The notes below the pieces were generated by a model. It saw only the letters and a program-made list of their open reading frames with translations. It did not search any database and was not told the origin of the DNA. DNA of 64,000 bases from Planctomycetota bacterium (lineage in GTDB: Bacteria; Planctomycetota; DG-23; JAZDKG01), in assembly GCA_043803205.1 (NCBI GenBank), contig JAZDKG010000070.1, positions 1,725 through 65,724 on the forward strand. The letters are read 5' to 3'. The translations under genes were made by a program, and so were the position numbers. Numbering within the stretch: the stretch's first letter is position 1; each line of letters starts with the position of its first letter. Of this stretch, positions 1,610 through 29,758 are shown piece by piece.

Positions 1610-2113
1610 TCATCGCCGCACGCGCAAGCGGACGGGAACGGCCTCCTCGGCGCGATGGCAATGGCAGATCGCCAGCGCCAGGGCGTCGGCGGCGTCGTCG
1701 GGCTCGGGGACTTGCGCCAGTCCGAGGAGGACGCGGACCATCTCCTGCACCTGGACTTTGTGGGCGCGGCCGTTTCCGACGACGGCTTTTTTCACCCGGG
1801 CGGGCTCGTATTCATAGAGGGCGACACCGGCGTGGGCGACGGCGAGCATGGCCGCTCCGCGGGCCTGCCCCATCACGAGGGCGGTGCGGACGTTTTGTCC
1901 GTAGAAGACATCCTCGATCGCGGCGGCGTCGGGACGCGCCCGCCGGAGGACGCCGGCAAGCTCGCCGTAGAGCTGGACGAGTTTCTCGCAGAACGGCTTG
2001 TCTCGCGGGATCGAGATGGCGCCGTAGTCGAGCGCCGCGAGGCGGTTGCCGCGCTGCTCGACCAGGCCCCAGCCGGTGCGCGAGGTTCCCGGATCGATGC
2101 CGAGCACGCGCAT
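1610..2113 (-). CDS. ruvC: crossover junction endodeoxyribonuclease RuvC
   Basis: 167 aa. MRVLGIDPGTSRTGWGLVE...AAIEDVFYGQNVRTALVMGQARGAAM...DAADALALAICH, the RuvC catalytic D/E/D motifs. Start overlaps the stop of the upstream ABC gene by 1 nt. Confidence 0.85.
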   Translation of the reverse strand: MRVLGIDPGTSRTGWGLVEQRGNRLAALDYGAISIPRDKPFCEKLVQLYGELAGVLRRARPDAAAIEDVFYGQNVRTALVMGQARGAAMLAVAHAGVALYEYEPARVKKAVVGNGRAHKVQVQEMVRVLLGLAQVPEPDDAADALALAICHCHRAEEAVPVRLRVRR

Positions 2114-3942
2114 CAGGACTCCTCCGTCTTGAACTGGGTGGCGTAGAGGACGCGATAGGTGGGGCTGGAGCGGAGGAGCTCTTCGTGCGCGCCGATCGTC
2201 TCGATTCGTCCCGAGCGGAGCACGACGACCATGTCGGCCCGCATGATGGTGGAGAGGCGGTGGGCGATGACGAAGGTTGTCCGTCCCTTGGCGAACTCCT
2301 CGAGGGCCTCGTGGACAGCGCGCTCGCTCTCGCTATCGAGCGCGCTCATCGCCTCGTCGAAGATGAGGATATCGGGATCGCGCAGGACAGCGCGGGCGAT
2401 GGCGATGCGCTGTCGCTGGCCGCCCGAGAAGTCGACGCCCTCCTCTCCAAGGCGCGTGTCGTAGCCGGCGGCCAGGCCCTCGATAAAGGGGTGGGCGTTC
2501 GCGCGGCGGGCGGCGGCGACGATAGCGTCTCTAGAGGCGCCGGCGGTGCCGTAGGCGATGTTCTGCGCCACCGTATCGTTGAAGAGGACGGTCTCCTGGG
2601 TGACCATGCCGATCCGGGAGCGAAGGGACGAGAGCTTCAGGCTGCGCAGGTCGAGGCCGTCGTAAAGGATGCGCCCGCGGGCGGGGTCGTAGAGGCGGGG
2701 GATGAGGTTCGCGAGGGTCGTCTTTCCGGCGCCGCTGTGTCCGACGAGGGCCACGCACTGTCCAGGACGGACGCGAAAGGTCACGTCGCGGAGGACGAGG
2801 GGGCCGTCGCCATAGGCGAAGGAGACGCCCTCGAAGGTGAGCTCGCCCTTGAGGGGTCCCGCAGTCGCGGGATCGGGGGCGTCGGTGATGGCGGGGGCGG
2901 TGTCCATGAAATCGAAGACGCGACGGGCGCCCGCCAGACATCCCTGGAGGTTGTTGTTGACGTTGGAGAGCTTGCGCAGGCTGTCGAGGAGGCTCGCCAT
3001 GAGGATATAGAAGGTAAGGAGCAGCGCGGCGGACATGACGCGGAGCGTGAGGACGAGGTAGGCCCCGACGACGAGCACCGCGGCGGCGCCGATCACGGTG
3101 AGGATCTCGACGGCGGGGCGGACGGCGGCGTCGGCTCTTTCGACGGACATGCGCTTGCGGAAGAGCCTGCGGTTCGCGTCGTCGAAGCGCTCTCTCTCGT
3201 AGCCTTCCATGCAGAAGACCTTGACGATGCGGACTCCCCGGAAGACCTCTTCGAGCATGGTCATCATGCGGGAGCTAGTCTGGAGGGCTTCTTTCGTCGC
3301 GCGGCGGACGAGTCGTCCGAAGTAGGTGATGATGGCCGTCACGGGGAGGAAGATGAAAGGGAACACGATCGTCAACTGCCAGCTCACGCGCAGGCAGAGG
3401 GCCACGACGACCGCTGCCCGAAGCGGTTCGCGAAGGGCCTTGCCGAAGAAGGTCCGGATGCCCGCATTGATCGCGGCCATGTCGTTGCTGAAGCGCGAGA
3501 GCAGCGGCCCGACCCCCTGGCGCTGGAAGAACTCGAGGTCCTGGGCGACGACGTTGCCGTGCAAGTCGCTTGTGAGATCGCGGACGACGCTGCATCCCAC
3601 GTGGGCCGCGCAATAGTCCTGGATGAAGCGGAAGGCGCCTTGGACGAGCTCGAGCAGGACGAGGAGGACGCAGATGGCGATGAGGGCAACGAAGGGGGAG
3701 CTGCGGAACGCCTCGGGGAGGAGCCAATCGAGGAAGACCCCGAGTCCGCTCATTTCCTGGGCGTCAGCGAATCGGACGGGACCGTCATGGCCTCCCAGGA
3801 GGAGCTGCAGGGCCGGGTAGATGCCGAGAAGGCTCGCGCCGCCGAGGCCCGCGATGAGGATGGAGAAGACGATGGTCGCGGCGAGTCGAGACGGGTACCG
3901 GAGAACCCGTCGAACCAGTCTCCTAAGGTCGGTTTCCCTCAC
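2113..3942 (-). CDS. ABC transporter, fused permease/ATPase, MsbA-like lipid exporter
   Basis: 609 aa. N-terminal 6-TM domain. Walker A GHSGAGKTT, signature FSGGQRQRIAIARA, Walker B ILIFDEAMSALD. Sits in an LPS core operon; 4-nt overlap with the upstream heptosyltransferase. Confidence 0.8.
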   Translation of the reverse strand: MRETDLRRLVRRVLRYPSRLAATIVFSILIAGLGGASLLGIYPALQLLLGGHDGPVRFADAQEMSGLGVFLDWLLPEAFRSSPFVALIAICVLLVLLELVQGAFRFIQDYCAAHVGCSVVRDLTSDLHGNVVAQDLEFFQRQGVGPLLSRFSNDMAAINAGIRTFFGKALREPLRAAVVVALCLRVSWQLTIVFPFIFLPVTAIITYFGRLVRRATKEALQTSSRMMTMLEEVFRGVRIVKVFCMEGYERERFDDANRRLFRKRMSVERADAAVRPAVEILTVIGAAAVLVVGAYLVLTLRVMSAALLLTFYILMASLLDSLRKLSNVNNNLQGCLAGARRVFDFMDTAPAITDAPDPATAGPLKGELTFEGVSFAYGDGPLVLRDVTFRVRPGQCVALVGHSGAGKTTLANLIPRLYDPARGRILYDGLDLRSLKLSSLRSRIGMVTQETVLFNDTVAQNIAYGTAGASRDAIVAAARRANAHPFIEGLAAGYDTRLGEEGVDFSGGQRQRIAIARAVLRDPDILIFDEAMSALDSESERAVHEALEEFAKGRTTFVIAHRLSTIMRADMVVVLRSGRIETIGAHEELLRSSPTYRVLYATQFKTEES

Positions 3943-5069
3943 GCTTCTCTATCCAACACCTTGAGGGCCAGGCGGAGCACGGAAGGCGGGTCGATCGCCT
4001 CCATGCAGCGCCGGTCGGAGCAATAGCGCCTGAGGCACGGGGCGCAGTCGAGGTCGGGGGGGCACACCACGTGGCGCCGCTGCCGATAGGGACCGGTCCT
4101 CGCAGGGTCCGTGGGGCCGAAGACGGCGACAAGGGGCGTCGCGAGCGCGTCGGCGATGTGCATGGGGCCGGAGTCATTCGTGAGAAAGAGGTCGGCGTCA
4201 GCGAGCAGCGCGACGAGCTCCTTGAGGGAGGTTTCACCCGCGAGGTTGACGGCGTCGCCCCCCACCCGCGCCCGGATTCGATCCGCCCGGGAGCGCTCCC
4301 TTGCGGTGCCGGCGAACACGACCTTGGCGCGACGCTCGGCGACGAGGGCCCCGGCCACGTATGCGAATCCGTCGATCGTCCACTCCTTCGAGGGCCAGCG
4401 CGCCGCCGGGGAAACCAGCACGAGGGGACGTCGGGCGTCGCGAACGTCGGCGAAGCGCTCCCGCATCCGTCGGCGCGCGTCTGCATCGACGACGATCGGG
4501 AAGTCCACGGAAACGCGCCGGAGGTGGAGACGGTCCGCCAGGAGGAGATAGCGATCGACGGCGTGCATCGGGATGCCCGGGCCGTCCACCCTTACGTTGT
4601 AGAACTTGTGGCTGAGCTCGCGCGCGCTGCGGAAGCCCACGCGGACGGGGGCCCCCGTAGCGTAGCTCATGAGCCCGCTGCGGAAGAGCCCCTGGAGATC
4701 AATCACGAGATCGAAGCCGCCGAGCTCGATCGCGCGGAGGAACCTCCCGAACCCCAGCAGGCTCTCCCAGGCGCGCCGCGTCGAGTCCCAGCGCCCGCGG
4801 TCCCAAGATATCACCTCGTCAAGGGCACCGTTCCCCGCGAGCACCGCTGCGAAATCCTTGTGCACGAGCCATGCGATCCACGCATCCGGGAAGTTGCCGC
4901 GCAGCGCGCCCAGGAGAGGCAGGCTGTGCACGATGTCCCCCAGTGCGCTGGGCTTGACGATCAGGATGCGGCGGATCTCGCGCAGGCTGTGGACCGGATG
5001 CCCGGCGTGACGAAAGCCCTGCCGCCACAGATGCAGGATTCGCTCCTGGTCCACTGAGGCGGCGCTCAT
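3939..5069 (-). CDS. glycosyltransferase family 9 (LPS heptosyltransferase, WaaC/WaaF-like)
   Basis: ILIVKPSALGDIVHSLPLL... and C-terminal TNDSGPMHIADALATPLVAVFGPTDP motif. ORF track extends to 5267. The internal ATG at 5069 (MSAASVDQERILHLW) forms an ATGA overlap with the upstream kinase stop. Confidence 0.75.
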   Translation of the reverse strand: MSAASVDQERILHLWRQGFRHAGHPVHSLREIRRILIVKPSALGDIVHSLPLLGALRGNFPDAWIAWLVHKDFAAVLAGNGALDEVISWDRGRWDSTRRAWESLLGFGRFLRAIELGGFDLVIDLQGLFRSGLMSYATGAPVRVGFRSARELSHKFYNVRVDGPGIPMHAVDRYLLLADRLHLRRVSVDFPIVVDADARRRMRERFADVRDARRPLVLVSPAARWPSKEWTIDGFAYVAGALVAERRAKVVFAGTARERSRADRIRARVGGDAVNLAGETSLKELVALLADADLFLTNDSGPMHIADALATPLVAVFGPTDPARTGPYRQRRHVVCPPDLDCAPCLRRYCSDRRCMEAIDPPSVLRLALKVLDREA

Positions 5070-6703
5070 GAGGCGCGCCTCGCGCGGACGGCGCTCGAAA
5101 GCAGGCTCCACCACCGCTCCAGCTCCGGGCGCGACTGTGCCGCAAGCCCGAGGTAGGCTTTGAGAAAGCGCAGCCCGTCCGTCGTCCGCACGGCGCGCGT
5201 CGAGCGCGCCGATACTGCGAGCCTGGCGAGATCGAGCATCCTGCGTCCTGTCGACAGGCGTCTGCACCGTGAGATTCCGTCCAAGTCGATAAGATACACG
5301 GCCCTGGGCTCACCATCCTCCCGCGAGAGGAGGATGTTGCTCACCTTGAGGTCGCGGTGAGAGAACCCCCTTTCGTGGAGTGAGGCGACCGCGCGGCCCA
5401 AGAGCTCCGCCGCGCAAGCTCCGGCTTTCAGTCTATCCCTTCCGGCGAGATTTGGAAGTACACGGGTGAGAAAGGCATGAAGCTCCCGGGCGTCGGCGAT
5501 GCGCTGCGTCACGACGCCGCTCTCCCGTAGGAGGCCGAGGCGCCGGACCTCCCAAGCGGCTACGGGCATGGCGGTGGGGACATCGCGGACGAAGAGGGCG
5601 TTGGCGAGCCGCCAGCCACGCAGGGCCCTGGAGCGTCGGACGAGATAGCTCAGTGCCCAGCGCGGTCCCTTGTTCTTGTAGCGCTTCACGACGATCTCGG
5701 CGGGGCCTTCGGGGCCGTCGAGGGCGTGAACCTCCACGCGGGTCGTGCCGCCGTCCTTGAGAAGCTTGGCTCCGACGCCGGTCTTCATGAGGGTGAGGAG
5801 CGCATCGCGATCCCATCCCCGGCGCAGGAAGTAGCGTCTGCCATCGAGCCTTCCCGTCTCGAAGTACTTGTTGTTCCGGACGCAGCGGCGTTCGCGGCTG
5901 GACCAGAACGCCTTGCGCCCCGCGAGGCTCGCGCGCTCGATCTCTCTCGGGTCGAGCCCCACGGGATCGGTCTCCTCATATGCGGCGAGGAAGCGTCGGC
6001 GCTGGGTGCGGGTGGTCCATCGGCTCCAGAACCAGTTGAAGACGGCGAGGTTGCGAAGGCGCAGGAGCGCGGGGAGTCCGCCGGGGCGGTCGCTAAGGGA
6101 CACGTCGTGAAGGTCAGTGAGGAAGAAGTCCATGGCGCCCGCGTTCCGGCGGGCGAGGATGTTTCCCGCGTGGAGGTCGCGGTGGAAGACGCCTGCGTCG
6201 TGGACCGAGCGGATGAAGCGGGCGAGCGCCGGCCCCATCTCGCGCAGCATATCGGTCCTATGGCGAGGGGAAGCGCGGGATACGATCACGCTGAGGGGGA
6301 GAGCCCCGTCGATCGCGGCCGTCACGAGGAAGTTCGAGAGGAGCGCCCCGAAGCGCCTGCGCTCCCCCATCGCCAACGGCTCGGGGACGGGGATCCCGCG
6401 CGCGGCGCAGCGCGTCGACACTTCCCACTCCACCTTTCCCGTCGAGGGACGGAAGAGGAAACGGAAGCGGTCCCACCACGTCGGACGCCTGTATTCCTTG
6501 ACGAAGAGGGCGCCGCCGGGGCGCTCCCACCGGTAGACCGCCCGTGCGGGCCCCTCCTTGACAACCTGCGTCGCGCCGTCGCGGGAGAGGTTCTCCCAGT
6601 CGGCGAGGAGGCTGGGGAGCTCCTGGGCGAAGGACGGGACGACGGTCCAGACGACGCCTCCGCGCTTCAGTCGGACGGGTTTGTTCGCCGTCGTGTCTTC
6701 CAC
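5066..6703 (-). CDS. tandem two-domain lipopolysaccharide kinase (WaaP/Kdo kinase family, PF06293-like)
   Basis: 545 aa. Domain 1 has FVKEY lysine and catalytic loop FHRDLHAGNIL. Domain 2 has VVKRYKNKG, SHRDLKVSNILL, and DFG-like IDLDG. Confidence 0.7.
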   Translation of the reverse strand: MEDTTANKPVRLKRGGVVWTVVPSFAQELPSLLADWENLSRDGATQVVKEGPARAVYRWERPGGALFVKEYRRPTWWDRFRFLFRPSTGKVEWEVSTRCAARGIPVPEPLAMGERRRFGALLSNFLVTAAIDGALPLSVIVSRASPRHRTDMLREMGPALARFIRSVHDAGVFHRDLHAGNILARRNAGAMDFFLTDLHDVSLSDRPGGLPALLRLRNLAVFNWFWSRWTTRTQRRRFLAAYEETDPVGLDPREIERASLAGRKAFWSSRERRCVRNNKYFETGRLDGRRYFLRRGWDRDALLTLMKTGVGAKLLKDGGTTRVEVHALDGPEGPAEIVVKRYKNKGPRWALSYLVRRSRALRGWRLANALFVRDVPTAMPVAAWEVRRLGLLRESGVVTQRIADARELHAFLTRVLPNLAGRDRLKAGACAAELLGRAVASLHERGFSHRDLKVSNILLSREDGEPRAVYLIDLDGISRCRRLSTGRRMLDLARLAVSARSTRAVRTTDGLRFLKAYLGLAAQSRPELERWWSLLSSAVRARRAS

Positions 6704-6727
6704 GGAGCGGCCTCTTCCTTCAACGCG

Positions 6728-8347
6728 CTAGTGTCCCGCGTCTGCGGGGACGGGGGGACGCGGGAAACGGTAGATCACGATACGCTCTTCCGAGGCGCCG
6801 GGATCCTTTCTCTCCCGCACAACGGGCTCCAAGGCGTAGTTCGGGACCGAGTTCGCGAAGTCCGGGATGCACTTGTCGAACTCGTCAAGGTCAACGATCA
6901 GGAATTCATAGGACCCGTCCTGGGCGCGACGCAGGAGGGCGTCGAGGGAGCGGACATCCGAGAGCGCGAGGTCATCAGCGGTCCCCTGGGCGTAGAGGGC
7001 GGCGCGCCCGTCCCGGAAATAGAGGAACCGTTTCCCGGGCCCGAATGTCTCGAGGATCCTACGGCCGGCCTCGCGGTATCCCGAGGTTTCGTGGCGTTGG
7101 AGCTTGAACGCCTGGAAGGAGAGCACCACGACGCAGGCGGCGAGGATCATCCCAAAGACGGTGGCTCTCCGGGCGGGCGTGCCCGGGCTGCGCGACGGAA
7201 GGCCCGTGAGAGCCTTCGTCGCCACGTCGATCCCTCTCGCGGCCCACGGGAGCGCAAGAGCCCCGACAAGGATGAGGTGCCGACTGGAGACGTATCCGAT
7301 GCGGCAGGCGAGAAGGAAGGCAAGGGCCACCGAGATCACGATGACCGCGACGAAGTAGAGCTCCCCCGCACGTCTCCTCCCTTCCCAGATCGCGCCCACG
7401 ACCGCAAGCAAGAAGAGCAGAGGATGCACCGCTTGGGTCACCTGGGAGAGGACGAAGAGAGCCGCAACGGGAAGGTCGCCGCGCAGGCGGACGACGACGG
7501 AGTCGGCGTCCGTCGGCTCCCGGCCGTCGCGGGGGGCCGCCGGAAGGGACTCCACGTCCGGTCGCCCGTTCTCCGGCTGCAACGCGAGGTTCATGGCCGT
7601 TTCACTCATCACCAACGCGGCGAGGGATTTCTTCTTGGAGAGGGTCCAACGGCCGGTGTCACATCGGAGGAACACGAGATAGGGCCCCGCGGCGGCGGCG
7701 AATATCACCGCGCTCATGAGGAGGCAGATCGCTTTGGCGACGACGCGCCCGCGCCAATGCGGCAGGCCCGCCACCGCGATCGCCGACGCGCCGATGATGA
7801 AGACGACGCCGCCCTCCGGACGGGTGAGATAGGCCAGTCCGGAGAAAAGGCCCAGAAGCGCGGCCGCCGCCGCATCGCCGTCGGCGGCGGCGCGGAACCC
7901 GGCGGCGAGGGCCGCCAGACAGAGAAAGACGTATGTCGGCTCGGTGAGGACGTCGGCGCTGGGCCTCGCGAATCTCGGCAGGAACACGAAGAGAAGGCCC
8001 GCCGCCAAGGCGGTCCTTACACCGAAAATCCGCCGAACGAGGAGATACAGCGGGACCAGCGCGGCGACGGACATGGTCAGGCTCACGACCTGCCCGGCGA
8101 CGATCCAGCCGGGGACGGCTAGATGCGCGACCACCACCAAGAAGGGGTAGAAGGGATGCTGAGCGTGCGCAAGGAAGACGCCGACGCGTCCGGCCGCGAA
8201 GGCCCGGGCCATCTCCAGGAATCCGACTGCGTCCTTGGCAACGACGACCACGCGCTCGAAGAGCACGATGCGCGTCGCGATCGCCAGCGCGACGAGAAGG
8301 AGGAACAGCACAAGCTCGCGTCTCGGCGACGTCTCCTCATTCAACAA
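6728..8347 (-). CDS. GT-C fold membrane glycosyltransferase, ArnT/PMT-like (GT39/GT83-type)
   Basis: 539 aa. About 11 N-terminal hydrophobic helices, first-loop AKDAVGFLEMARAF, C-terminal soluble domain. The architecture resembles ArnT / protein-O-mannosyltransferases. Confidence 0.45.
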   Translation of the reverse strand: MLNEETSPRRELVLFLLLVALAIATRIVLFERVVVVAKDAVGFLEMARAFAAGRVGVFLAHAQHPFYPFLVVVAHLAVPGWIVAGQVVSLTMSVAALVPLYLLVRRIFGVRTALAAGLLFVFLPRFARPSADVLTEPTYVFLCLAALAAGFRAAADGDAAAAALLGLFSGLAYLTRPEGGVVFIIGASAIAVAGLPHWRGRVVAKAICLLMSAVIFAAAAGPYLVFLRCDTGRWTLSKKKSLAALVMSETAMNLALQPENGRPDVESLPAAPRDGREPTDADSVVVRLRGDLPVAALFVLSQVTQAVHPLLFLLAVVGAIWEGRRRAGELYFVAVIVISVALAFLLACRIGYVSSRHLILVGALALPWAARGIDVATKALTGLPSRSPGTPARRATVFGMILAACVVVLSFQAFKLQRHETSGYREAGRRILETFGPGKRFLYFRDGRAALYAQGTADDLALSDVRSLDALLRRAQDGSYEFLIVDLDEFDKCIPDFANSVPNYALEPVVRERKDPGASEERIVIYRFPRPPVPADAGH

Positions 8348-8550: not shown

Positions 8551-9585
8551 ATGATCGCACCTCCATCCGGGGCGCTGCGCGTACTGTATCTCGTACAGAA
8601 TCCCAAGAGCCCGAGCGCGAGGTTCCGGGCCGTCGAGATGGCGCCGCAGCTTCTATCGTTCGGCGTCGCCTCCGAGGTGCGCGCGATCGGGCGGCATGGG
8701 GCGGAGCGGAAAGCGGTCTTCCGGGAGGCGGCGGCTTATGACGTGGTGGTGCTGGCGCGCAGGCTGCTCACGGGGAGGGACCTCCGGCAGCTCAGGCGCG
8801 CGGCGCGCGTCCTCATCTACGAGTTCGATGACGCCGTCATGTACCGCGACCCGCGCAGGGGGCGTCCGAAGTCCCTTGTGAGACGCCTGCGGTTCCGCAA
8901 CGCGGTCCGGAGCGCCGACGCGATCATCGCCGGGAACCACATTCTCGCCGAAGAGGCGAGGAGATACTGCGAGGCGCCGGTGTTCGTGGTCCCGACGGCG
9001 GTGGACACGCAGCGGTATCGTGCGACGCGGGGGGACAGGCACCCGGAGGTGTCGGTCGGCTGGCTCGGCTCGAGAGGAAGCGTGTGGTATTTCGACCGTT
9101 TCGCGGACGTCTGGGAGCGCGTGAGCGAGGAGATGGGCGACTCCGTGCGCTTCCGGGTAGTCTGCGACGTCCCCCCGACATGGCGGAGCGCCCTTCTTGA
9201 CTACATCCCGTGGTCGCCTGAGGCGGAGCTGGCGGCGCTATCCTCTTTCGACGTGGGGTTGATGCCTTTGACCGACGATCCGTTCTCCCGGGGGAAATGC
9301 GCCTGCAAGATCCTCCAGTACTTCGCCGCGGGACTTCCGGTCGTGGCGAGTCCCGTCGGGATGAACCGCGAGGTCGTGACTCCGGGCGTGACTGGCTTCC
9401 TTGCGGAAGAGCCGGAACAATGGGCGGAGTATGTCGGGCGACTCGCGACGGATCACACGTTGAGGGAGAAGCTGGGAGCCGCGGGACGGGAACTCGTCGC
9501 GCGGGACTATGACGTGCGGATCGTCGCACGACGACTGGCGCAGATTCTCAAGGGAAGAGGCTCCAGCGAGAACGAGACAACTTAA
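8551..9585 (+). CDS. glycosyltransferase family 4 (GT-B, GT1 superfamily)
   Basis: 344 aa. C-terminal KILQYFAAGLPVVASPVGMNREVV, the EX7E-type motif region of GT4 enzymes. Confidence 0.7.
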   Translation: MIAPPSGALRVLYLVQNPKSPSARFRAVEMAPQLLSFGVASEVRAIGRHGAERKAVFREAAAYDVVVLARRLLTGRDLRQLRRAARVLIYEFDDAVMYRDPRRGRPKSLVRRLRFRNAVRSADAIIAGNHILAEEARRYCEAPVFVVPTAVDTQRYRATRGDRHPEVSVGWLGSRGSVWYFDRFADVWERVSEEMGDSVRFRVVCDVPPTWRSALLDYIPWSPEAELAALSSFDVGLMPLTDDPFSRGKCACKILQYFAAGLPVVASPVGMNREVVTPGVTGFLAEEPEQWAEYVGRLATDHTLREKLGAAGRELVARDYDVRIVARRLAQILKGRGSSENETT

Positions 9586-9761: not shown

Positions 9762-11510
9762 GTGCCGGGGATCCGCATAGGAGCTAGAACCATGTCGCGA
9801 ATCATGTCGGCGGAAGGTTTCCTCATCTTCCTCCTCGTGGGACTTCACCTTTTCATATTCACGCGCGGGATGGACGAGGAGGGATGGGGGTCGCTATCCA
9901 ACACCGTGTCCATTCTCGAAGACCGGGATCTCAACCTAGCGAACAACCGGTTCCCGTCCCAGGAGGGGCCGTCCGCGCCCGTCGAGACGGCGGTGCCGGC
10001 GGAAGTCGCTCCGGAGACCGAACCGCATGAGGGACCGGCGGCGGGGGAGCCTGTTCCACCTCCCGAGCACATAGAAGTCCCGCCGGCGGCTCCGGAGGGC
10101 CAGTCGGAGGATGCCCCTGCCGCAATGCCGGCGGCGGAGGAGGAGACACCGACACCCACAGGTCCATATGGGGCCAGTCCGGCGAACGCGGAGCGCATCG
10201 TAGCAAGGACGCCTCTCGGGACGAGCTTCTTCGACATTCCCTTCGTGTGGGCGGCGAATCGGTGGTTCATTCCCGAGGCGAAGCAGGACGATGATCAGGA
10301 GACGGTCCACGCGAAGAAGGCGGCGAAGGAGTCGACGGATGTCTTCGCGCTGCTTTTAAGTCGGTCATTCTGGACGGTCCTAGCGATGCTCGTCCTCTAC
10401 GCCGTCCTCACGGATCTCGAATTCCCGCGCGGCGACAGCCTCATGTCGGTCCTTTTCATCTTCGCAAGCTCGTCGCTCACGTGGTATGGGGCATCGAGCT
10501 CATCCTACGGGGTTGCCACGTTCGTGTTCGCACTCATCCTCTACGCATTCACGCACCTCCTGCTCAAGATCAAGCAGGAAGCCGGGTACGAGTACTACGG
10601 CCGATGGTTCGGGATCGGGTTACTCGTAGGCTTAGCGGGCCTGGTAGAGTACGGCAGCGTATGGCTAGCGGCGGTGTTCGTGCTGTACCTTCTTCTGGAC
10701 CGAACGGGGTGGGGGACGGCGATTCTCAAGATCATCGTCTTCGCCCTCGGGTTCGGCGCCGTGTGGTGGATCAACCCGTGCTACTGGTCGACGCAGTTCG
10801 GGACGGGGGTCTTCTCGGCCCTGCGGGAGACGTTCCAGCTCGCGGGCTGGCACCTAGCGCCGGTGCGGGTGCTGTTCCACCTGCGCAACGGCTTCTTCCT
10901 TTTTGCGCCGCTCTATTTCTTCGGGTTCTTCGGGCTGCTCCTGTACCTCATGAACCGGAGTGAGGCGCCCGTCGAGTTTCGTCTGGGAGGCGTCTCCCTC
11001 CTGAGTCTGCTGGCGCTGTCCTTCGCGGCGGGGCTGAACGTGCGATGGACGCAAGGGGGCTTCGGCCAGCACCTCCTGACGCCCGCGCTCGTGTTCGTCG
11101 CGATCGGGGTCGGCGAGCTTCTCGGCGCCGAGGACAAGAGGTTCCTGCGCTATCTCCTCGGGTTCGCTGCGACCGTCTGGAGCTATCTCGTGTTCCTCCT
11201 CGCCCGCTCCGGCATACTGGGCGACAGCGCCTACGGTCTTGCCGATGTCCGGCCATACTGGAAAGCGATCTGGGGGAAGGACTACACCTGGAAGTGGATC
11301 CTGAACCGGGTCGGGAACTGCTCGGCGACGATGAACTACATGCTCGCCGAGGAGCGCCGGGGAGTTTTTCTTGTCTTCATCGTGGCGGCGTTCCTGCTGC
11401 TGCTGCCAGCATTCTCCTTCGTGCGTGAGCACCGGCTGCGGGAGCAGCTTGAGCGCAAGGCCCGTCGCGACGCGGCGGACAAGTGGCGGGCGCCCGGCTG
11501 GCAGCGATAG
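9762..11510 (+). CDS. polytopic membrane protein with N-terminal TM anchor, Pro/Glu/Ala-rich linker and 10+ TM core (possible O-antigen ligase/polymerase-like or GT-C-like)
   Basis: 582 aa. Low-complexity PSAPVETAVPAEVAPETEPHEGPAAGEPVPPPEHIEVPPAAPEG linker, then a W/Y/G-rich multi-helix domain. No recognisable catalytic motif. Confidence 0.45.
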   Translation: MPGIRIGARTMSRIMSAEGFLIFLLVGLHLFIFTRGMDEEGWGSLSNTVSILEDRDLNLANNRFPSQEGPSAPVETAVPAEVAPETEPHEGPAAGEPVPPPEHIEVPPAAPEGQSEDAPAAMPAAEEETPTPTGPYGASPANAERIVARTPLGTSFFDIPFVWAANRWFIPEAKQDDDQETVHAKKAAKESTDVFALLLSRSFWTVLAMLVLYAVLTDLEFPRGDSLMSVLFIFASSSLTWYGASSSSYGVATFVFALILYAFTHLLLKIKQEAGYEYYGRWFGIGLLVGLAGLVEYGSVWLAAVFVLYLLLDRTGWGTAILKIIVFALGFGAVWWINPCYWSTQFGTGVFSALRETFQLAGWHLAPVRVLFHLRNGFFLFAPLYFFGFFGLLLYLMNRSEAPVEFRLGGVSLLSLLALSFAAGLNVRWTQGGFGQHLLTPALVFVAIGVGELLGAEDKRFLRYLLGFAATVWSYLVFLLARSGILGDSAYGLADVRPYWKAIWGKDYTWKWILNRVGNCSATMNYMLAEERRGVFLVFIVAAFLLLLPAFSFVREHRLREQLERKARRDAADKWRAPGWQR

Positions 11511-11550
11511 CGCATTTGCGGCGGGACGGCGTTTGCCTTATCATGTCACG

Positions 11551-12294
11551 ATGATGACACGTAGGGAAATCCGCTCGCACAATCCCGCGGAACCTTGTCA
11601 CGTCAAGGTCACGGTTATCGTTCCCGCCTACAACGAGGCGGCGACCCTAGAGGCGATCCTCGAGCGCCTGGAGTCCCGGGACGACGTCGACGAGGTGCTC
11701 GTGGTGGACGACGGTTCTACGGACGGGACATCCGCGATCGTCCTTCGGTTCACGGAGCGGGACACGCGCTTTCGCCTGCTGCGCCATCCGACCAACCTCG
11801 GGAAGGGGGCGGCGGTGCGAACGGCGCTCGCGCAGGCGACCGGCGACGTTTTCATCATCCAGGACGCCGACCTCGAGTACGATCCCGTCGACTTCCCGAA
11901 ACTCCTTTCCCCCATCCGACAGGGCAAGGCCGACGTGGTGTACGGATCGCGCATCCGGGGGAGGAATCCGATGAGCTATCTTTCCTTCTTCCTGGGAGGG
12001 GTGACGCTTTCGATTCTCACGGACCTTTTGTACGCGGCGCGCATCACGGACGAGCCGACGTGCTACAAGGCGTTCCGCCGCGAGGCGCTCTCCCGGATCG
12101 AGCTGCGGGCCAACGGTTTCGAGTTCTGCCCGGAGCTGACGGCGAAGCTGCTCCTTTCGGGGCGGAGGATCCACGAGGTGGCGATATCCTACGTCCCGCG
12201 CACGAAGGACCAAGGGAAGAAGATTCGCTGGACCGACGGCCTCAAAGCCGTGTGGACACTTTTCTTCCTGCGGCTTACGGGGAAGGTGCGCTGA
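11551..12294 (+). CDS. glycosyltransferase family 2, polyprenyl-phosphate sugar transferase (Dpm1/ArnC/GtrB-like)
   Basis: VTVIVPAYNEAATLEAIL...VVDDGSTDGT...IIQDADLEYDP, the GT-A DXD motifs. Start reset to ATGATG at 11551. The track ORF 11371.. overlaps the upstream gene in frame. Confidence 0.7.
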   Translation: MMTRREIRSHNPAEPCHVKVTVIVPAYNEAATLEAILERLESRDDVDEVLVVDDGSTDGTSAIVLRFTERDTRFRLLRHPTNLGKGAAVRTALAQATGDVFIIQDADLEYDPVDFPKLLSPIRQGKADVVYGSRIRGRNPMSYLSFFLGGVTLSILTDLLYAARITDEPTCYKAFRREALSRIELRANGFEFCPELTAKLLLSGRRIHEVAISYVPRTKDQGKKIRWTDGLKAVWTLFFLRLTGKVR

Positions 12295-20967: not shown

Positions 20968-22464
20968 TTGACCAGTCGTTCCCATCTGCGACAGATGATC
21001 GAGAAGCTCGGCAAGCCCACCGTGCTCGTGATCGGCGACTTCATCCTGGACCGTTACATCTGGGGACGGGTGGACCGGATCAGCCCCGAGGCCCCCATCC
21101 CCGTCCTTGCTGCCGAGACCGAAGAAGAGCGCCCGGGGGGTGTCGGGAGCGTCCTCAACAACTTGGCGGCGCTGGGCGCGAAGTGCAGGGCGATCGGTGT
21201 CGTCGGGGATGACGAGGAAGGCCGACGGTTCCATGGTCTGCTCGACGCGGCGGGGCTGTCGGGCGCATGCGGGACCGTGTTCACGGACCCGCGCCGGCGT
21301 ACCACCGTGAAGACGCGCCTCATCGCGAAGGTCCAGCACCTCCTGCGCGTGGATCAGGAACACACCCATCCCCTCGACGGCGAGCTCGAGCAGGCGCTCA
21401 TCGCCCGGGCCCTAGCGCACATGGACGACAGCGACATCATCCTTGTGAGCGACTATGGGAAGGGGGTCGTCTCGGCGGCGGTCATGGAAGCCGTCGTGTC
21501 GAGCGCCCGACGGCGCGGTCTCAGGGTGATCGTAGACCCCTGGCGGGGACGCGACTACGCCCATTACCGGCGCGCCACCGCGGTCACTCCGAACCGCAAC
21601 GAGACCCAGATCGCGACGGGCATCCGTCTCGAGGCGACCGATGCTTACGAGAAGGCCGCCCGCAGGCTCATCCGCGAATACGAGCTCGATGCCGTCGTGA
21701 TCACCCTTGACAGGGACGGGATCTACTGCGCCGAAGGGTCTTCGCCGGGGCGGCTCATCCCCACGCGGCCGCGCGCCATCTTCGACGTCACCGGCGCTGG
21801 CGACATCGTGCTGAGCGTTCTCGGGGTGGGACTGGCGAGCGGGCTGGATCTAGAGAGCGCGGCGGAGCTGGCGAACCTAGCGGCCGGGGTGGAGGTCGAG
21901 AAACTGGGGGCGGCCCCCGTCTCGATCTGTGAGATGCTCAACGCCGTCTCGGATTCGCCGCACCACGCCAGGGCGAAGGTCGTGAGCGAAGAGGAACTCC
22001 TGTCCAAGCTCGCGGAGCACCGTCGCCGCGGAGAACGGATCGTGCTGGCAAACGGGTGTTTCGACCTGCTGCACGCGGGGCACGCGGAGTTTCTAGCGTT
22101 CGCCCGCCGGCAGGGGGACACACTCGTCGTGGCGCTCAACTCCGATTCCTCGGTGGCGGGCCTCAAGGGGCCCGACAGGCCCTTTCAATCCCAGTCCGAA
22201 CGGGCTAGAATACTTGCGGCATTGGGCGACGTGAATTACGTGGTCGTCTTTGACGAGCCGACCCCGGAGCGGATCGTGCGCAGCGTGAGGCCCGATGTCC
22301 TGGTCAAGGGCGAGGACTGGCGCGAGCGCGGCGTGGTCGGAAGGGAGTTCGTGGAGAGCTACGGCGGGACGGTGGTGCTGGCGCCTCTGGTCGAGGGCGT
22401 GTCGACCACGCAGATCGTGTCCAGCATCCGGCAGGGAGGCGGCGGCGTCCGGGAAAGAACATGA
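20968..22464 (+). CDS. hldE: bifunctional D-beta-D-heptose 7-phosphate kinase / D-beta-D-heptose 1-phosphate adenylyltransferase HldE (RfaE)
   Basis: 498 aa. N-terminal pfkB kinase (LVIGDFILDRYIWGRVDRISPEAPIPVL, GAGD). C-terminal cytidylyltransferase (IVLANGCFDLLHAGHAEFL). Confidence 0.85.
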   Translation: MTSRSHLRQMIEKLGKPTVLVIGDFILDRYIWGRVDRISPEAPIPVLAAETEEERPGGVGSVLNNLAALGAKCRAIGVVGDDEEGRRFHGLLDAAGLSGACGTVFTDPRRRTTVKTRLIAKVQHLLRVDQEHTHPLDGELEQALIARALAHMDDSDIILVSDYGKGVVSAAVMEAVVSSARRRGLRVIVDPWRGRDYAHYRRATAVTPNRNETQIATGIRLEATDAYEKAARRLIREYELDAVVITLDRDGIYCAEGSSPGRLIPTRPRAIFDVTGAGDIVLSVLGVGLASGLDLESAAELANLAAGVEVEKLGAAPVSICEMLNAVSDSPHHARAKVVSEEELLSKLAEHRRRGERIVLANGCFDLLHAGHAEFLAFARRQGDTLVVALNSDSSVAGLKGPDRPFQSQSERARILAALGDVNYVVVFDEPTPERIVRSVRPDVLVKGEDWRERGVVGREFVESYGGTVVLAPLVEGVSTTQIVSSIRQGGGGVRERT

Positions 22465-23075
22465 GCGAGGAACGAATCCAAGCCATCGTGAACGAAGCGG
22501 TCGAAGTCCTTCGCGCGATCGACGCCGCGCAGGTGAAGGCGATCCGCTCGGCCGCGGACGCGATAGTCAAGGCGCTGCGAAGGGACCGTCGGGTCTACAT
22601 CCTGGGGAACGGCGGAAGCGCCGCCGACGCGCAGCACTTCGCAGCCGAGCTCGTTGGAAGGTTCCGCATGGACCGCAAGGCTCTACCCGTGACGGCGCTG
22701 ACCACGGACACGTCGATCCTGACGTCGATCGGCAACGACTACGGGTACCAGTGCATCTTCAGCAAGCAGGTGGAGGGTTTCGTGCACCGGGGGGACGTGG
22801 TGGTGTGCATCTCGACGAGCGGGAACTCGCCTAACGTTGTGGCGGCCATGATGATCGCCCGGGAGCTGGGGGCGACGACGATCGGGCTCGCGGGCCACGA
22901 CGGCGGAAAGATGAAGAGCTTGTGCGACGTCTTGGTGAGCGTTCCCGCGGAATCGACCGCGCGGGCGCAGGAGGCGCACGGCGTCGTCATCCATGCGATC
23001 TGCGAACTCGTCGAGGGCGAGATCTTCTCCCCCCAGCGGAGGGGGAAAACGGGCAAGGCTTCCAACGGCCGGTAG
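22461..23075 (+). CDS. gmhA: phosphoheptose isomerase GmhA (SIS domain)
   Basis: 204 aa. YILGNGGSAADAQHFAAELVGRF...CISTSGNSPNVV. ATGA overlap with hldE. Confidence 0.85.
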   Translation: MSEERIQAIVNEAVEVLRAIDAAQVKAIRSAADAIVKALRRDRRVYILGNGGSAADAQHFAAELVGRFRMDRKALPVTALTTDTSILTSIGNDYGYQCIFSKQVEGFVHRGDVVVCISTSGNSPNVVAAMMIARELGATTIGLAGHDGGKMKSLCDVLVSVPAESTARAQEAHGVVIHAICELVEGEIFSPQRRGKTGKASNGR

Positions 23076-23136
23076 AGATCCAGCGTCCGCCGCCAAAAGC
23101 GAGAACGTTCGCGCGCCCGCGCGCGGCCCTACACGC

Positions 23137-24645
23137 ATGAAAGTACTTTTCGTCTATCCAAACCGGGACTGCCAGATCGGCTTCAACTACGGCCTAGCGT
23201 TCCTGAGCGCGGTGCTCAAGGAGGCGGGACACGAGACGCGGCTTCTCAACCTCAACGAGAAGCTCGCGACGCTTCCGACCTTGGAGGAGATAGGACGGGC
23301 GGTGCGCGACTACGCGCCGGACCTTGTCGGGATGAGCGTCGTGACGAACCAGTGGCGCTACGCCCTCGAGGTGGCGCAAGCCGTCCGGAAGGTCACCGAC
23401 GCGCCCCTCGTATGCGGCGGCATCCACGCGACCATGTCGGCGGAGGAGATCCTGGAAGGGACCCCATTCGACTACGCCGTCGTCGGCGAGGGGGAAGGGG
23501 CCATCCTTGACCTCGTGCGCGCGATTGATCGGAACGCCGACGTCTCGAGGATCTCGAACCTCGCCTGCCGCATTGACGGGAAGGTGCAGGTGAACGCCGT
23601 CCGCCCGCTCGTGAACCTATCGACACTCCCTAGAAAGGACTACGGGCTCTTCGACTTCCAGCGCATGATCGACGCCAAGGACGGATGGGTCGGGATCATG
23701 GCCGGGCGGGGGTGCCCGTTCCGCTGCACATACTGCTTCAACCATGCGATCGTGGAACGCTACAGCCGGGACACAGGTCTCTCCCCCGCCGCGCTCCACT
23801 ACGTCCGCTGGCACCCCGTCGAGGAGGTCATCGAGGAGATCCTGTGGCTCCAGAAGACCTACCGGCGGATTCGCATGATCATCTTCGACGACGACCTCTT
23901 CACCCTCGACCGCGAGTACCTAGCGGAGTTCACGAAGCAGTACCGCGCGCGCGTGCGGCTCCCCTTCGTGGCGAACGCCCACGTGAAACACTTCGACCGC
24001 GACATAGCGCGCATGTTCAAGGACGCCGGCTGCGCTATCGTCAAGTTCGGGGTGGAGTCGGGGAGCGACCGGATCCGGCGGGACATCATGCACCGGAGGA
24101 TGTCCAACGGGGAGATCGAGCGCGCTTTCGAGGCGGCACACGAGGCGGGGCTGCACACCTCGGCGTTCGTCATGCTCGGATTACCGCACGAGGGACGCGA
24201 GGAAATCGAGGAGACGGTCCGCCTGCTGGGACGCATCGGCCCCGGACGGTTCCGCTGGGCAATCTTCTTTCCCTTTCCGGGGACGCGCGCCTTCGAGATC
24301 GCGCGCGAGGGCGGTTTCATCGACGAGGCGAAGCTGCCGACGCTGTCGAACTTCTTCGAGGATTCGGCGCTCGACTTCGGGCCCGAGCACAACCTCTTCA
24401 TCCGGAAGCTCCGTCGGGCGCTGCCTTGGTACGTCAACGCGGCGTGCGACCGCGAAGGCGCCGACTACTACCACAAGCTCGTGCGCCTTGTGGAGCGCTG
24501 GGACGAGAGCGCATGGGAGCGGCTCTCCCCACGGATGATCGAGTTCGACCGGAACGTCTCCGCGCACGCGGAGCGCAAAGGCTGGCGACACTACCTGGTG
24601 CGCTTCAACGATTTCATGGCGGTGGACAGCGCGTGGAAGGAATGA
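23137..24645 (+). CDS. B12-binding-domain radical SAM enzyme (class B rSAM)
   Basis: N-terminal MKVLFVYPNRD...GHETRLLNL B12/Rossmann-like domain. GRGCPFRCTYCFN CX3CX2C cluster motif. Start reset from 22993 to ATG 23137. Confidence 0.75.
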   Translation: MKVLFVYPNRDCQIGFNYGLAFLSAVLKEAGHETRLLNLNEKLATLPTLEEIGRAVRDYAPDLVGMSVVTNQWRYALEVAQAVRKVTDAPLVCGGIHATMSAEEILEGTPFDYAVVGEGEGAILDLVRAIDRNADVSRISNLACRIDGKVQVNAVRPLVNLSTLPRKDYGLFDFQRMIDAKDGWVGIMAGRGCPFRCTYCFNHAIVERYSRDTGLSPAALHYVRWHPVEEVIEEILWLQKTYRRIRMIIFDDDLFTLDREYLAEFTKQYRARVRLPFVANAHVKHFDRDIARMFKDAGCAIVKFGVESGSDRIRRDIMHRRMSNGEIERAFEAAHEAGLHTSAFVMLGLPHEGREEIEETVRLLGRIGPGRFRWAIFFPFPGTRAFEIAREGGFIDEAKLPTLSNFFEDSALDFGPEHNLFIRKLRRALPWYVNAACDREGADYYHKLVRLVERWDESAWERLSPRMIEFDRNVSAHAERKGWRHYLVRFNDFMAVDSAWKE

Positions 24646-25700
24646 TCGGCCCCATCCGGACGATCCTCATCCGCTCTCCCAACTGGGTGGGCGATTGCGT
24701 CATGGCGACTCCGGCGCTGGCGGCCTTCCGAGACGCCTTCCGGGACGCGACGATCCTGCTCTTGGCCCCGTCCTATACGGCCGAGGTGTTCGAAGGGGGC
24801 GACTGGTTCGACGAGCTCCTGGTTGTGCCAGGGAGTCGAAGCCTCGGGGCTTTTTTGCGCGCGGTGCAGACCGCAGCGGCCCTTCGCCGCCGACGGGCGG
24901 ACCTCGGCATCCTCATGACGAACTCCCTGGGAAGCGCGGTCCTCATGAAGCTCGCCGGGGCGCGCAACATCGTGGGGTACTCCCGCAACGGTCGGTCCGC
25001 GCTCCTCACCACGGCTCTAGCACCCGCGCGCACGCTCGGGGGATTCGTCCCCGGTCCCATGGTTGATTATTACCTGGAACTCGCCCGGGCCGTCCGTCGT
25101 AGGACTGACGGGACGGAGGATCGGAGAATCCGCCTTGCCACGACGCCCCGAGAAGAGGAGGCGGCTCGCACGCTCTGGGAGCGACTGGGTCTGGGATCGA
25201 GACGAGTGGCGGGGCTCAACCCCGGGGCGGCCTTCGGCAGCGCGAAATGCTGGCCTCCCGCGCACTTCGCCGCTCTCGGGCGGATGCTGGCGGAGCGATC
25301 GGGGCTCGACGTCCTCGTCCTCTGCGGACCGGCCGAGCGGAGCGTCGCCCGCGCGATCATAACCGAGGCCGGGCACCCGGCAGTGAGGGGTCTCGAAGGG
25401 GAAGACGTCCCCCTGGGGGTCCTAAAGGCCGTGGTGCGGCGGCTCGCGCTGCTCGTGACGAACGATTCAGGCCCGCGTCACTTCGCGTGCGCCTTCGCGG
25501 TCCCGACCGTCACGGTTTTCGGTCCGACCGACGAACGGTGGAGCGAGACGGCCCGAACGGACGAAATAAAGATCGTGCGCGACCTCGCGTGCAGGCCCTG
25601 CATGAGACGCGTTTGTCCCACCGACCACGCCTGCATGCGCTCCATCGAACCGGAGGCGGTCTACGAGGCCGCTACGGAACTTCTCAAGGGACACAGATGA
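24642..25700 (+). CDS. glycosyltransferase family 9 (heptosyltransferase, WaaF/WaaC-like)
   Basis: MIGPIRTILIRSPNWVGDCVMATPAL... and TNDSGPRHFACAFAVPTVTVFGPTDERW. ATGA overlap with the rSAM gene. Confidence 0.75.
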   Translation: MIGPIRTILIRSPNWVGDCVMATPALAAFRDAFRDATILLLAPSYTAEVFEGGDWFDELLVVPGSRSLGAFLRAVQTAAALRRRRADLGILMTNSLGSAVLMKLAGARNIVGYSRNGRSALLTTALAPARTLGGFVPGPMVDYYLELARAVRRRTDGTEDRRIRLATTPREEEAARTLWERLGLGSRRVAGLNPGAAFGSAKCWPPAHFAALGRMLAERSGLDVLVLCGPAERSVARAIITEAGHPAVRGLEGEDVPLGVLKAVVRRLALLVTNDSGPRHFACAFAVPTVTVFGPTDERWSETARTDEIKIVRDLACRPCMRRVCPTDHACMRSIEPEAVYEAATELLKGHR

Positions 25701-26707
25701 ACGAAGGACTCAAGCGCGTCGTCCGGCGATTCCCAAAGGCCCGCATCGCTGTCGTGGGCGACTTCGTCGCGGACCTGTATGTGCACACCCGTCCCCGCCG
25801 CTTGAGCCGCGAGGCCCCCGTCATCATCTGCGAGTATGAGGGCGAGGAGATGGTCGCCGGGAGCGCCGGGAACACGGCGGCGAACGCGCTGGCGCTCGGC
25901 GCCGGCGTGCGCTGCATCGGGATCATCGGCGACGACGCGGAAGGACGGGGGCTGGCACGCCTGTTGAGGAGAGAGGGCGCCGACACCCGGGGGCTCCTAC
26001 GCGCCCGTAACCGTCCAACTACCACGAAGACGCGCATCCTGGCCGGCGACCTGCACACGATCAAGCAGCAGGTCATCCGGATCGACCGCCACAGCGTGCG
26101 CGGGGCGACGGCCGCGCAGGAACGCACGCTCACGCGTGCGCTGGCGAGAAGCGTGCCGCGCGTCCAAGCCGTCATCGCCAGCGACTATGACGACAGCACC
26201 CTCACGCCCGAGGTGATCTCCGTCCTGTGCGCGCACGCGGCGCGCCTCCCCCTCGTCGTGGACAGTCGCGCTCGACTGCGGCAGTTCGCAAACGCCTTTG
26301 TCGCGACTCCCAACGAGACGGAGGCGCTCGAGCTCACCGGCATGATCCCGCGGACGCGGGGAACGGCGCGCGACCTTGCGCGCCTCGGGGAGCGCCTGCG
26401 GGGCGCGCTCCGGGCCCGGCACATCCTGCTTACGCGGGGAAACCAGGGCATGGTCCTCTACGAGCAAGGCCGCGCCCCCTACATCATCCCGATCGTGGGG
26501 AGCACGGACATCGTGGACGTGACCGGGGCGGGGGACACTGTGGCGGCGGCGTTGACGCTGGCGATCGTAAGCGGGGCGTCGATGCGTCAAGCCGCATGGA
26601 TCGCGAACTGCGCGGCGGGGGTGACCGTGATGAAGCCCGGCGCCGCCGCCCTCACGCGGCGGGAGCTTCTTGACGCGATCGAGAGCGCCGGCCCCATAAG
26701 GACGTGA
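25697..26707 (+). CDS. pfkB-family sugar kinase, RfaE domain-I / HldA-like (heptose 7-phosphate kinase paralog)
   Basis: [26 protein letters not shown]...[13 protein letters not shown] overlap with the GT9 gene. Confidence 0.7.
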
Positions 26708-26711
26708 CGAC

Positions 26712-27236
26712 ATGGCGCGCTTCGTCCGCTCGCACGCGGGTCTTCGTCGGATCCTGGACCGCCACCGCCGGAACGGCGAACGGATCGTGATGGCGAACGG
26801 CTGCTTCGAGCTCCTTCACGTGGGACACATCCGCTACCTCGAGGCGGCGTCGCGCCTCGGCGACATCCTCGTCGTGGCGGTGAACACCGATGCGAGCGTG
26901 CGTCAGCTCAAGGGGAGGGGTCGTCCGCTCGTGGACCTGGCGGAGCGCGTGGAGACGCTCCGGGCTCTGCGCTGCGTGGACTACGTCACGGCGTTCGGCG
27001 GGAAGACGTGCGACGCGCTCTTGAGCACGATCCGGCCCGACGTGCACGCCAAGGGAACCGACTACGCGACCGACACTGTTCCGGAGCGCAAGACCGTGCG
27101 CGCGTACGGCGGCAAGACCGTCATCGTCGGCGATCCCAAGCGGCACTCCGTGACGGACTTGATCCGGAGGATCGGGTCGCTCGGCGTCGAGGCGCGCGGC
27201 CGCCCCGTTAAGCGTCGCCCCCGAAGGAAGGCATGA
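26712..27236 (+). CDS. cytidylyltransferase-like, RfaE domain-II / HldC-like (heptose 1-phosphate adenylyltransferase paralog)
   Basis: [19 protein letters not shown] (HxGH)...VAVNTDASV...CVDYV, 174 aa. Confidence 0.75.
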
Positions 27237-29725: not shown

Positions 29726-29758
29726 AGCCGTAGCGGAGAAGCCAAAGGCCGGACATCC

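Follow-up and report, generated by a model that had tools for sequence, protein, structure and literature searches.

The phosphate groups of the lipopolysaccharide (LPS) core cross-link LPS through divalent cations, and they set the stability of the outer membrane and its permeability to antibiotics. Some LPS cores carry di- or triphosphate groups, and the core-phosphate kinases of Pseudomonas aeruginosa are essential. WaaP, KdkA, WaaY and InaA are all single-domain proteins, and to our knowledge every characterised member of Pfam family PF06293 (Kdo) has an LPS core sugar as its substrate. It was long argued that Planctomycetota have no classical outer membrane, and hardly anything is known of the chemistry of their LPS core. 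The gene described here encodes two PF06293 modules in one polypeptide. It lies in a stretch of 64,000 nucleotides from a Planctomycetota bacterium (NCBI GenBank assembly GCA_043803205.1, contig JAZDKG010000070.1, positions 1,725 to 65,724 of the forward strand), which is called the window; coordinates refer to it unless another locus is named.

In WaaP of P. aeruginosa, Tyr165 binds the substrate and His168 binds Mg, and the enzyme carries a DLH-R motif (PMC6147952). The substitutions K51A, D163A and D188N each abolish growth, while an E78A mutant is viable but shows a 128-fold increase in sensitivity to ethylenediaminetetraacetic acid (EDTA) (PMC6147952). The core kinases of this organism are encoded by neighbouring genes and act in order, the first phosphorylation being needed for the later ones (PMC3147165). 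The tandem protein of the window is, with high confidence, an LPS-related PF06293 kinase. Judged from its sequence and surroundings, it is on balance probably a soluble protein at the membrane periphery that phosphorylates the LPS inner core with ATP, through two sub-functionalised active sites that would each add one phosphate.

Two kinase modules in one polypeptide

The tandem gene begins with a GTG codon that is preceded by AAGGAAGAGG, a Shine-Dalgarno-like sequence. NCBI holds the same protein, with the same start and a 100% match, as MFH0963244.1, from a Planctomycetota metagenome-assembled genome (MAG; 73.7-kb contig), under the name "lipopolysaccharide kinase InaA family protein". The feature is thereby confirmed as real, and its NCBI annotation is already at the family level.

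The whole 545-residue protein matches PF06293 with 114.7 bits in two stretches. When the halves are isolated by a split at residues 275/276, the N-terminal half scores 53.7 bits and the C-terminal half 64.4 bits, each above the gathering threshold of 21.3 bits; the tandem of two LPS-kinase modules proposed by the sequence-only reading therefore holds for both halves independently. The comparison of the halves with each other, which that reading had put forward as a check, gives 31% identity over 219 residues (BLASTP, E 1e-14), and profiles of the N and C families align by hhalign with a probability of 100% (E 2e-53, 226 columns). An AlphaFold2 model built from a 65-sequence alignment has a predicted local distance difference test (pLDDT) score of 94.9 and a predicted template modelling (pTM) score of 0.89, values that suggest a defined relative placement of the two modules. 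Both modules of the model have a short activation segment and a three-helix C-terminal subdomain. According to a Foldseek search against the PDB, the top match of the model is WaaP (6dfl_A, E 6.8e-12, TM score (target) 0.60), followed by JAK/TYK2 tandems (root-mean-square deviation (rmsd) above 22 Å), PRPK/Bud32 and Rio kinases. Residues 47-243 of the N module also match WaaP 6dfl_A by phmmer over 197 residues (E 1.3e-8). The long helix that joins the modules carries a basic motif, W267..R270..R273-C-x-R-x-N-K-Y-F281 (aa 267-281; 5861..5905, minus strand), of which R270 is conserved in 82% and R273 in 87% of the tandem family. This junction could hold the two modules together as a clamp or form a patch that binds lipid or LPS.

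In active kinases, the Glu of helix alphaC pairs with the Lys of strand beta3. An alignment of 211 tandem-family members was used for all conservation figures in the catalytic regions (Table 1). The beta3 Lys, the catalytic-loop Asp and Asn, and the Mg-binding Asp are kept at 97-100% in both modules, and both sites are under selection. The counterparts of the Lys and of the two Asp residues in P. aeruginosa WaaP are K51, D163 and D188. In the N-module loop, D176 is found in 211/211 members, H178 in 204/211 (97%) and N181 in 208/211 (99%); in the C-module loop the figures are 211/211 for D451, 199/211 (94%) for K453 and 205/211 (97%) for N456. Each module has a conserved signature of its own, HxDLHxGN and DLH for N and HRDLKxxN and DLDG for C, and sub-functionalisation of the two modules is the best reading of this sequence pattern.

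The expected position of the alphaC Glu in the C module is occupied by Ala, Ser or Gly, with 0% Asp or Glu (211/211 members), and the residue before it, R362 in the present protein, is Arg in 154/211 (73%). The profile alignment pairs the N-module string 'skA--Ew' with 'SrA-RaW' of the C module, and places the N motif R-x-S-x-A-x-x-E-W opposite the C motif R-x-S-R-A-x-R-[AS]-W. In the AlphaFold2 model E92 is the fifth residue of helix 88-101 and G363 the fifth residue of helix 359-372, which puts both on the same turn of equivalent helices. Thus, the earlier statement that both modules have intact motifs is borne out for HRD...N and for DLHD and IDLDG, but it does not extend to the alphaC Glu, which the C module lacks in 211/211 sequences.

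Table 1. Coordinates in the window of the tandem kinase gene, its modules and catalytic motifs, and of the neighbouring genes.
Feature	Position	Strand	Remarks
Tandem PF06293 kinase gene	5066..6703	-	545 aa; GTG start at 6703, TGA stop 5066-5068
N-terminal kinase module, aa 1-275	5879..6703	-	Beta-hairpin/helix extension, kinase core, three C-terminal helices
K69, beta3 Lys of N module	6497..6499	-	K in 208/211 (99%); aligns with WaaP K51
E92, alphaC Glu of N module	6428..6430	-	E in 204/211 (97%); aligns with WaaP E78
N-module catalytic loop, H174-R175-D176-L-H178-A-G-N181	6161..6184	-	Family signature HxDLHxGN
N-module DFG-equivalent, D197-L198-H199-D200	6104..6115	-	D197 in 210/211; DLH as WaaP D188-L189-H190
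C-terminal kinase module, aa 276-545	5069..5878	-	Layout as in N module
K340, beta3 Lys of C module	5684..5686	-	K in 209/211 (99%)
G363, expected alphaC Glu position of C module	5615..5617	-	Preceded by R362
C-module catalytic loop, H449-R450-D451-L-K453-V-S-N456	5336..5359	-	Family signature HRDLKxxN
C-module DFG-equivalent, I472-D473-L474-D475-G476	5276..5290	-	D473 in 211/211
PMT_2/ArnT-type GT-C glycosyltransferase, first operon gene	6728..8347	-	PF13231, 36.7 bits; stop 24 nt before kinase start
GT9 heptosyltransferase, 376 aa	3939..5069	-	PF01075, 183 bits; ATGA overlap with kinase stop
MsbA-like ABC exporter	2113..3942	-	ABC_membrane and ABC_tran; GTGA overlap with GT9
RuvC, last operon gene	1610..2113	-	PF02075, 169 bits; TGATG overlap with exporter
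GT4 glycosyltransferase (GT4a), divergent from operon	8551..9585	+	Pfam GT4/GT1 domains
Second LPS-core cluster	20968..30934	+	Includes triple kinase
Triple PF06293-domain paralog (NCBI MFH0963263.1)	27233..29725	+	Three Kdo stretches, 215 bits

The tandem family, its origin and its loci

An exhaustive phmmer search with the tandem kinase against 1.84 billion cluster representatives (50% identity clusters) returned 6566 matches with E<=1e-3, of which 2135 have E<=1e-10 and 449 have E<=1e-30. Among the best 150 of these 449, nearly all are 500-660 aa long and align co-linearly from end to end. A hidden Markov model (HMM) of a single module finds two clean domains in 207 of the 218 relatives collected, and six more also have two domains, with the first match split. 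The sequence-only reading had called the tandem duplication unusual for the family. With 449 clusters at E<=1e-30, spread over most Planctomycetota orders, this is true only in relation to the characterised single-domain enzymes, and not in sequence space. A profile of 10 close sequences located 80 loci in GTDB species genomes, and tandem kinases are present in Gemmataceae/Gemmatales, Isosphaeraceae, Pirellulales, Planctomycetales, Phycisphaerae and Brocadia. Cultured Isosphaeraceae are represented by Paludisphaera soli JC670 and Aquisphaera insulae JC669. A few tandem-kinase MAGs are labelled Verrucomicrobiales, Anaerolineales or Alcaligenaceae; the placement of loci L048, L054, L057, L060 and L068, in MAGs labelled Alcaligenaceae or Anaerolineales/Anaerolineaceae, could reflect mis-binning or horizontal transfer outside the Planctomycetes-Verrucomicrobia-Chlamydiae (PVC) group.

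The distance matrices of N modules and of C modules correlate with r = 0.70 (permutation maximum 0.08), which indicates that the modules co-evolved and that the pair arose once and has since been passed on together. The two halves of the present protein are each other's best BLASTP match (58.5 bits; next best 42-47 bits, and 46.6 at most). A neighbour-joining tree with 100 bootstraps was built from 36 N and 36 C domains, WaaP, WaaY, InaA, the three domains of a triple-domain paralog in the window (described below), six single-domain kinases neighbouring tandem genes, and the proteins P0058, P0059, P0105, P0069 and P0072. The C domains fall together, with the exact split in 31% of replicates and a mean best Jaccard index of 0.93; an exclusive clade of N and C domains appears in 0/100 replicates, in a tree that is star-like and holds few single-domain proteins. 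Against an HMM of the N module, the C domains have a median score of 151 bits, compared with 148 for domain 3 of the triple protein and 120 for Escherichia coli WaaP. The fused pair arose either by internal duplication or by fusion of two paralogs.

C-type modules also occur on their own. P0058 is a complete gene of 301 aa; it has HRDLKVSN and IDLDG, Ser stands where the Glu would be, and the gene upstream of it is unrelated to the N module. P0059 (299 aa) is likewise C-type and called complete, and its upstream neighbour is on the opposite strand. We rejected that these two are contig-end fragments of tandem genes, for P0058 from the complete gene and its unrelated neighbour and for P0059 from the gene call and the opposite-strand neighbour, and their existence suggests that the C module is viable alone. 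Single C-type genes (locus L087, 149..1054, and P0059), which have HRDLKxxN and no alphaC Glu, nest among the tandem C modules in the tree. This nesting suggests occasional loss of the N module.

In the window, the tandem gene is the second of an operon in the order PMT_2, tandem kinase, GT9, MsbA-like exporter and RuvC. The Pfam domains and the junctions agree with the ArnT-like/kinase/GT9/msbA/ruvC operon described earlier, and the sequence itself shows the ATGA that is shared by the TGA stop of the kinase gene and the ATG start of GT9; the junction overlaps of the operon are of 4 nt and 1 nt. The GT9 protein passes the cutoff of TIGR02195, heptosyltransferase II (140.7 vs 134.6), and stays below that for heptosyltransferase I (153.5 vs 185.3). 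By BLASTP it scores 102 bits with E. coli WaaF and 93 with both WaaC and WaaQ. The best NCBIfam model of the exporter is MsbA_lipidA, at 467 bits and below its cutoff of 602. A scan for promoters and terminators gave one promoter-like site upstream of PMT_2, which was no better than those in shuffled sequences. The gene for the Holliday-junction resolvase, ruvC, closes the LPS operon and is coupled to it in translation, a position that it keeps in loci L083 and L085, relatives at 47-50% identity. Opposite the kinase and PMT_2 genes lies an antisense open reading frame (ORF) of 798 aa rich in Gly, Glu, Arg and Asp (5726..8122, plus strand), presumably a shadow ORF of this 68% GC sequence.

Close relatives allow this context to be followed further. 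The order PMT_2, tandem kinase, GT9, ABC exporter and RuvC is identical in P0006 and P0003, from which it was read (47-50% identity), and PMT_2 precedes and overlaps the kinase start in L083, L085 and L086. Across the 80 GTDB loci, the commonest neighbour is a homolog of the GT4a glycosyltransferase: of the 66 loci with enough upstream flank, 37 have it immediately upstream of the kinase gene and in the same orientation. GT9 lies directly downstream in 17 of the 73 with enough downstream flank, and anywhere within the flanks in 24/80. A GT4a or GT9 homolog is within the flanks of 60/80 loci and an MsbA-like gene occurs in 12/80. In 6/80 there is an additional, WaaP-like single-domain kinase; the six kinases fall with E. 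coli WaaP and the third domain of the triple protein in the tree. GT4a itself does not resemble WaaG or WaaB of E. coli, and its NCBIfam matches are weak.

The same strand as GT4a carries, at 9762..11510, a gene for a hydrophobic protein of 582 aa, apparently a membrane protein by its sequence, that neither Pfam nor NCBIfam models match. A GT2 glycosyltransferase resembling polyprenyl-phosphate sugar synthases (AglJ, ArnC-like) follows at 11542..12294 (plus strand). The two could be an unrecognised GT-C glycosyltransferase and its donor synthase. The cumulative GC skew of the window peaks near 24-28 kb and declines steadily from there to the window end, a turn that could mark a switch in strand bias or a replication landmark.

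The triple-domain partner mentioned by the sequence-only reading was found within a second LPS-core cluster (Table 1). It reaches the cutoff of the RfaP model NF011703 through its domain 3 (174.1 vs 170), whose loop, HHQDFYLNH, is of the WaaP type and which aligns to E. coli WaaP with 76.6 bits. In domain 2 the sequence is HNELFAKH, with Glu for Asp, and in domain 1 ITNCP stands where the DFG Asp would be, so that possibly two of the three modules are degenerate. A single further homolog of the triple protein was found (P0220, 858 aa, 47% identity), and the triple architecture is accordingly far rarer than the tandem. The second cluster further encodes a fused HldE-like PfkB and cytidylyltransferase, a radical SAM/B12-binding enzyme, a second GT9, a separate PfkB kinase and cytidylyltransferase (a second HldE in two genes), and a WaaG-like GT4 (99 bits to E. 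coli WaaG). Since a WaaP candidate and ADP-heptose genes are thus already present, other sites are the most likely targets of the tandem kinase.

Predicted function and its alternatives

In the mechanism that we infer, with the LPS core as substrate, both modules active, two different sites and a given order of steps, the co-translated GT9 and other core transferases would add heptose to Kdo-lipid A (Kdo, 3-deoxy-D-manno-octulosonate) on the cytoplasmic face of the inner membrane. Each kinase module would phosphorylate a different hydroxyl, on one sugar or on neighbouring sugars and possibly in a fixed order. The MsbA-like exporter would then flip the phosphorylated core-lipid A, which the ArnT-type GT-C of the operon may decorate in the periplasm. 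A heptose-phosphorylating role, as suggested earlier from the ATGA overlap, is consistent with the recurrent adjacency of GT9 and with the ADP-heptose genes in the window. That both modules act, and on distinct sites, can be held with moderate confidence.

Several observations weigh against this two-site inner-core kinase. The alphaC Glu is missing from the C module throughout the family, and WaaP E78A is impaired but viable; together these make the case for an active C module weaker without removing it, and activity can be predicted with less certainty for this module than for the N module. The WaaP/RfaP model NF011703 (cutoff 170) gives 79.8 bits for the whole protein, 41.5 for the N half and 41.9 for the C half, and the KdkA model NF002475 (cutoff 142) gives 89.9, 37.6 and 55.6, respectively. 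Because neither cutoff is reached, the acceptor sugar is not transferable by homology. Furthermore, 20 of the 80 loci are without a GT4a or GT9 homolog within the flanks, and literature searches on tandem LPS kinases and planctomycetal core kinases yielded nothing relevant in the library searched.

The missing Glu bears directly on whether the C module works at all. If only the N module were a working kinase, a single phosphate would be added and the C module would be regulatory or scaffolding, or would bind nucleotide or substrate; replacement of the Glu in 211/211 C modules, the severe impairment of WaaP E78A (PMC6147952), the JAK/TYK2 pseudokinase-kinase tandems among the Foldseek matches and the seemingly degenerate modules of the triple paralog would all fit. 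Against this, K340, D451, K453, N456 and D473 are kept at 94-100%. Pseudokinases usually lose at least one of the beta3 Lys, catalytic-loop and Mg-binding residues. In addition, stand-alone C-type genes exist, the rmsd above 22 Å means that tandem topology alone is shared with JAK, and the WaaP E78A mutant still grows (PMC6147952), all of which leaves an inactive C module unlikely, if the most serious of the rivals. A C module that acts in an obligatory relay is improbable. There, the N module would phosphorylate a core sugar and the C module would recognise the product and add the next phosphate, possibly onto the first to give a di- or triphosphate, and the C-type, which also occurs as single genes, would then form a distinct catalytic class of PF06293 and be more than a diverged copy. 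The features of the C module on which such a relay would draw are an Arg-rich alphaC helix (R356, R359, R362) and an HRDLK loop of Ser/Thr-kinase type.

The acceptor may also be something other than the LPS core: lipid A, a polyprenyl-phosphate-linked GT-C intermediate or another envelope polysaccharide. The prominence of an uncharacterised GT4 as the commonest neighbour (37 loci, and only 17 for GT9) would suit such a substrate, as would the GT2 like polyprenyl-phosphate sugar synthases, the PMT_2 GT-C and the unannotated 582-aa membrane protein in the window, and the low scores with the WaaP and KdkA models. However, both here and in relatives the kinase gene is coupled in translation to GT9 and MsbA-like genes, WaaP-like kinases co-cluster with the tandem kinase, and the characterised PF06293 members, as far as we know them, act on LPS core sugars; another glycoconjugate is for these reasons rather unlikely. 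Very improbable is a Ser/Thr or Tyr protein kinase that regulates envelope biogenesis. It would account for the C-module loop HRDLKxxN, which is the Ser/Thr protein-kinase consensus, and tyrosine-kinase activity was reportedly seen for P. aeruginosa WaaP by Zhao and Lam in 2002. The Pkinase family PF00069 (threshold 31.7) does match the whole protein with 39.6 bits, but the match spans only aa 435-474, a stretch of 40 residues at the catalytic loop, and with 27.3 bits the isolated C half stays below the threshold. Moreover, activation loop, APE motif and GHI subdomain are absent and WaaP-like three-helix ends stand in their place, and the study of the WaaP structure saw no protein phosphorylation (PMC6147952).

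The protein belongs to a populous, uncharacterised tandem clade in which the C module is a conserved Glu-less variant, and the significance is incremental, since the family, the fold and the pathway were already known. The tandem family offers a natural experiment in how a kinase module may work without the alphaC Glu. Given a conserved fused double kinase and, next to it, a distinct WaaP-like domain, the LPS core of Planctomycetota is predicted to be heavily phosphorylated, and the tandem kinase is a concrete enzyme with orthologs in cultured Isosphaeraceae.

Comparison with known kinases

Two kinase-like folds in one chain are also found in JAK/TYK2 (pseudokinase-kinase) and in RSK (two active kinases), and RSK gives weak sequence matches to the C-module loop. 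These proteins differ from the tandem kinase in that they are of unrelated origin, place their domains otherwise (rmsd above 22 Å) and are protein rather than sugar kinases. InaA belongs to PF06293 and its substrate is unknown. The tandem protein has no match to an NCBIfam InaA model, and E. coli InaA is not significant by BLASTP; the name in the NCBI annotation is therefore a family label only. KdkA of Haemophilus and Vibrio is from the same Pfam family and provides the best NCBIfam model for both the whole protein and the C module. In contrast to the tandem protein, which scores far below 142, KdkA has a single domain.

WaaP, a heptose(I) 4-O-kinase (P. aeruginosa 6DFL, E. coli b3630), is a member of the same Pfam family and the best structural match. 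The beta3 Lys and the HRD Asp are shared by both modules, and the alphaC Glu and the DLH triplet by the N module only. The short activation segment and the three-helix C-terminal subdomain are likewise those of WaaP (PMC6147952), and, like the tandem gene, waaP is encoded beside heptosyltransferase and GT4 genes. On the other hand, WaaP is a single-domain protein of ~265 aa, and its loop is HRDxYxxH, with His for Asn and the substrate-binding Tyr, as opposed to HRDLHAGN and HRDLKVSN in the tandem protein. Furthermore, it is the triple-domain protein that carries this genome's WaaP-like domain.

For WaaY, a heptose(II) kinase, there is no PF06176 match at E<=0.01, and the E. coli protein reaches 18.9 bits (E 0.75, BLASTP). 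WaaY and the P. aeruginosa kinases WaaP, WapP, WapQ and PA5006 are separate polypeptides, and their likeness to the tandem kinase is a functional analogy, in that several kinase domains are encoded together. By this analogy, one planctomycetal polypeptide may do the job for which E. coli uses WaaP and WaaY, and P. aeruginosa uses WaaP, WapP and WapQ.

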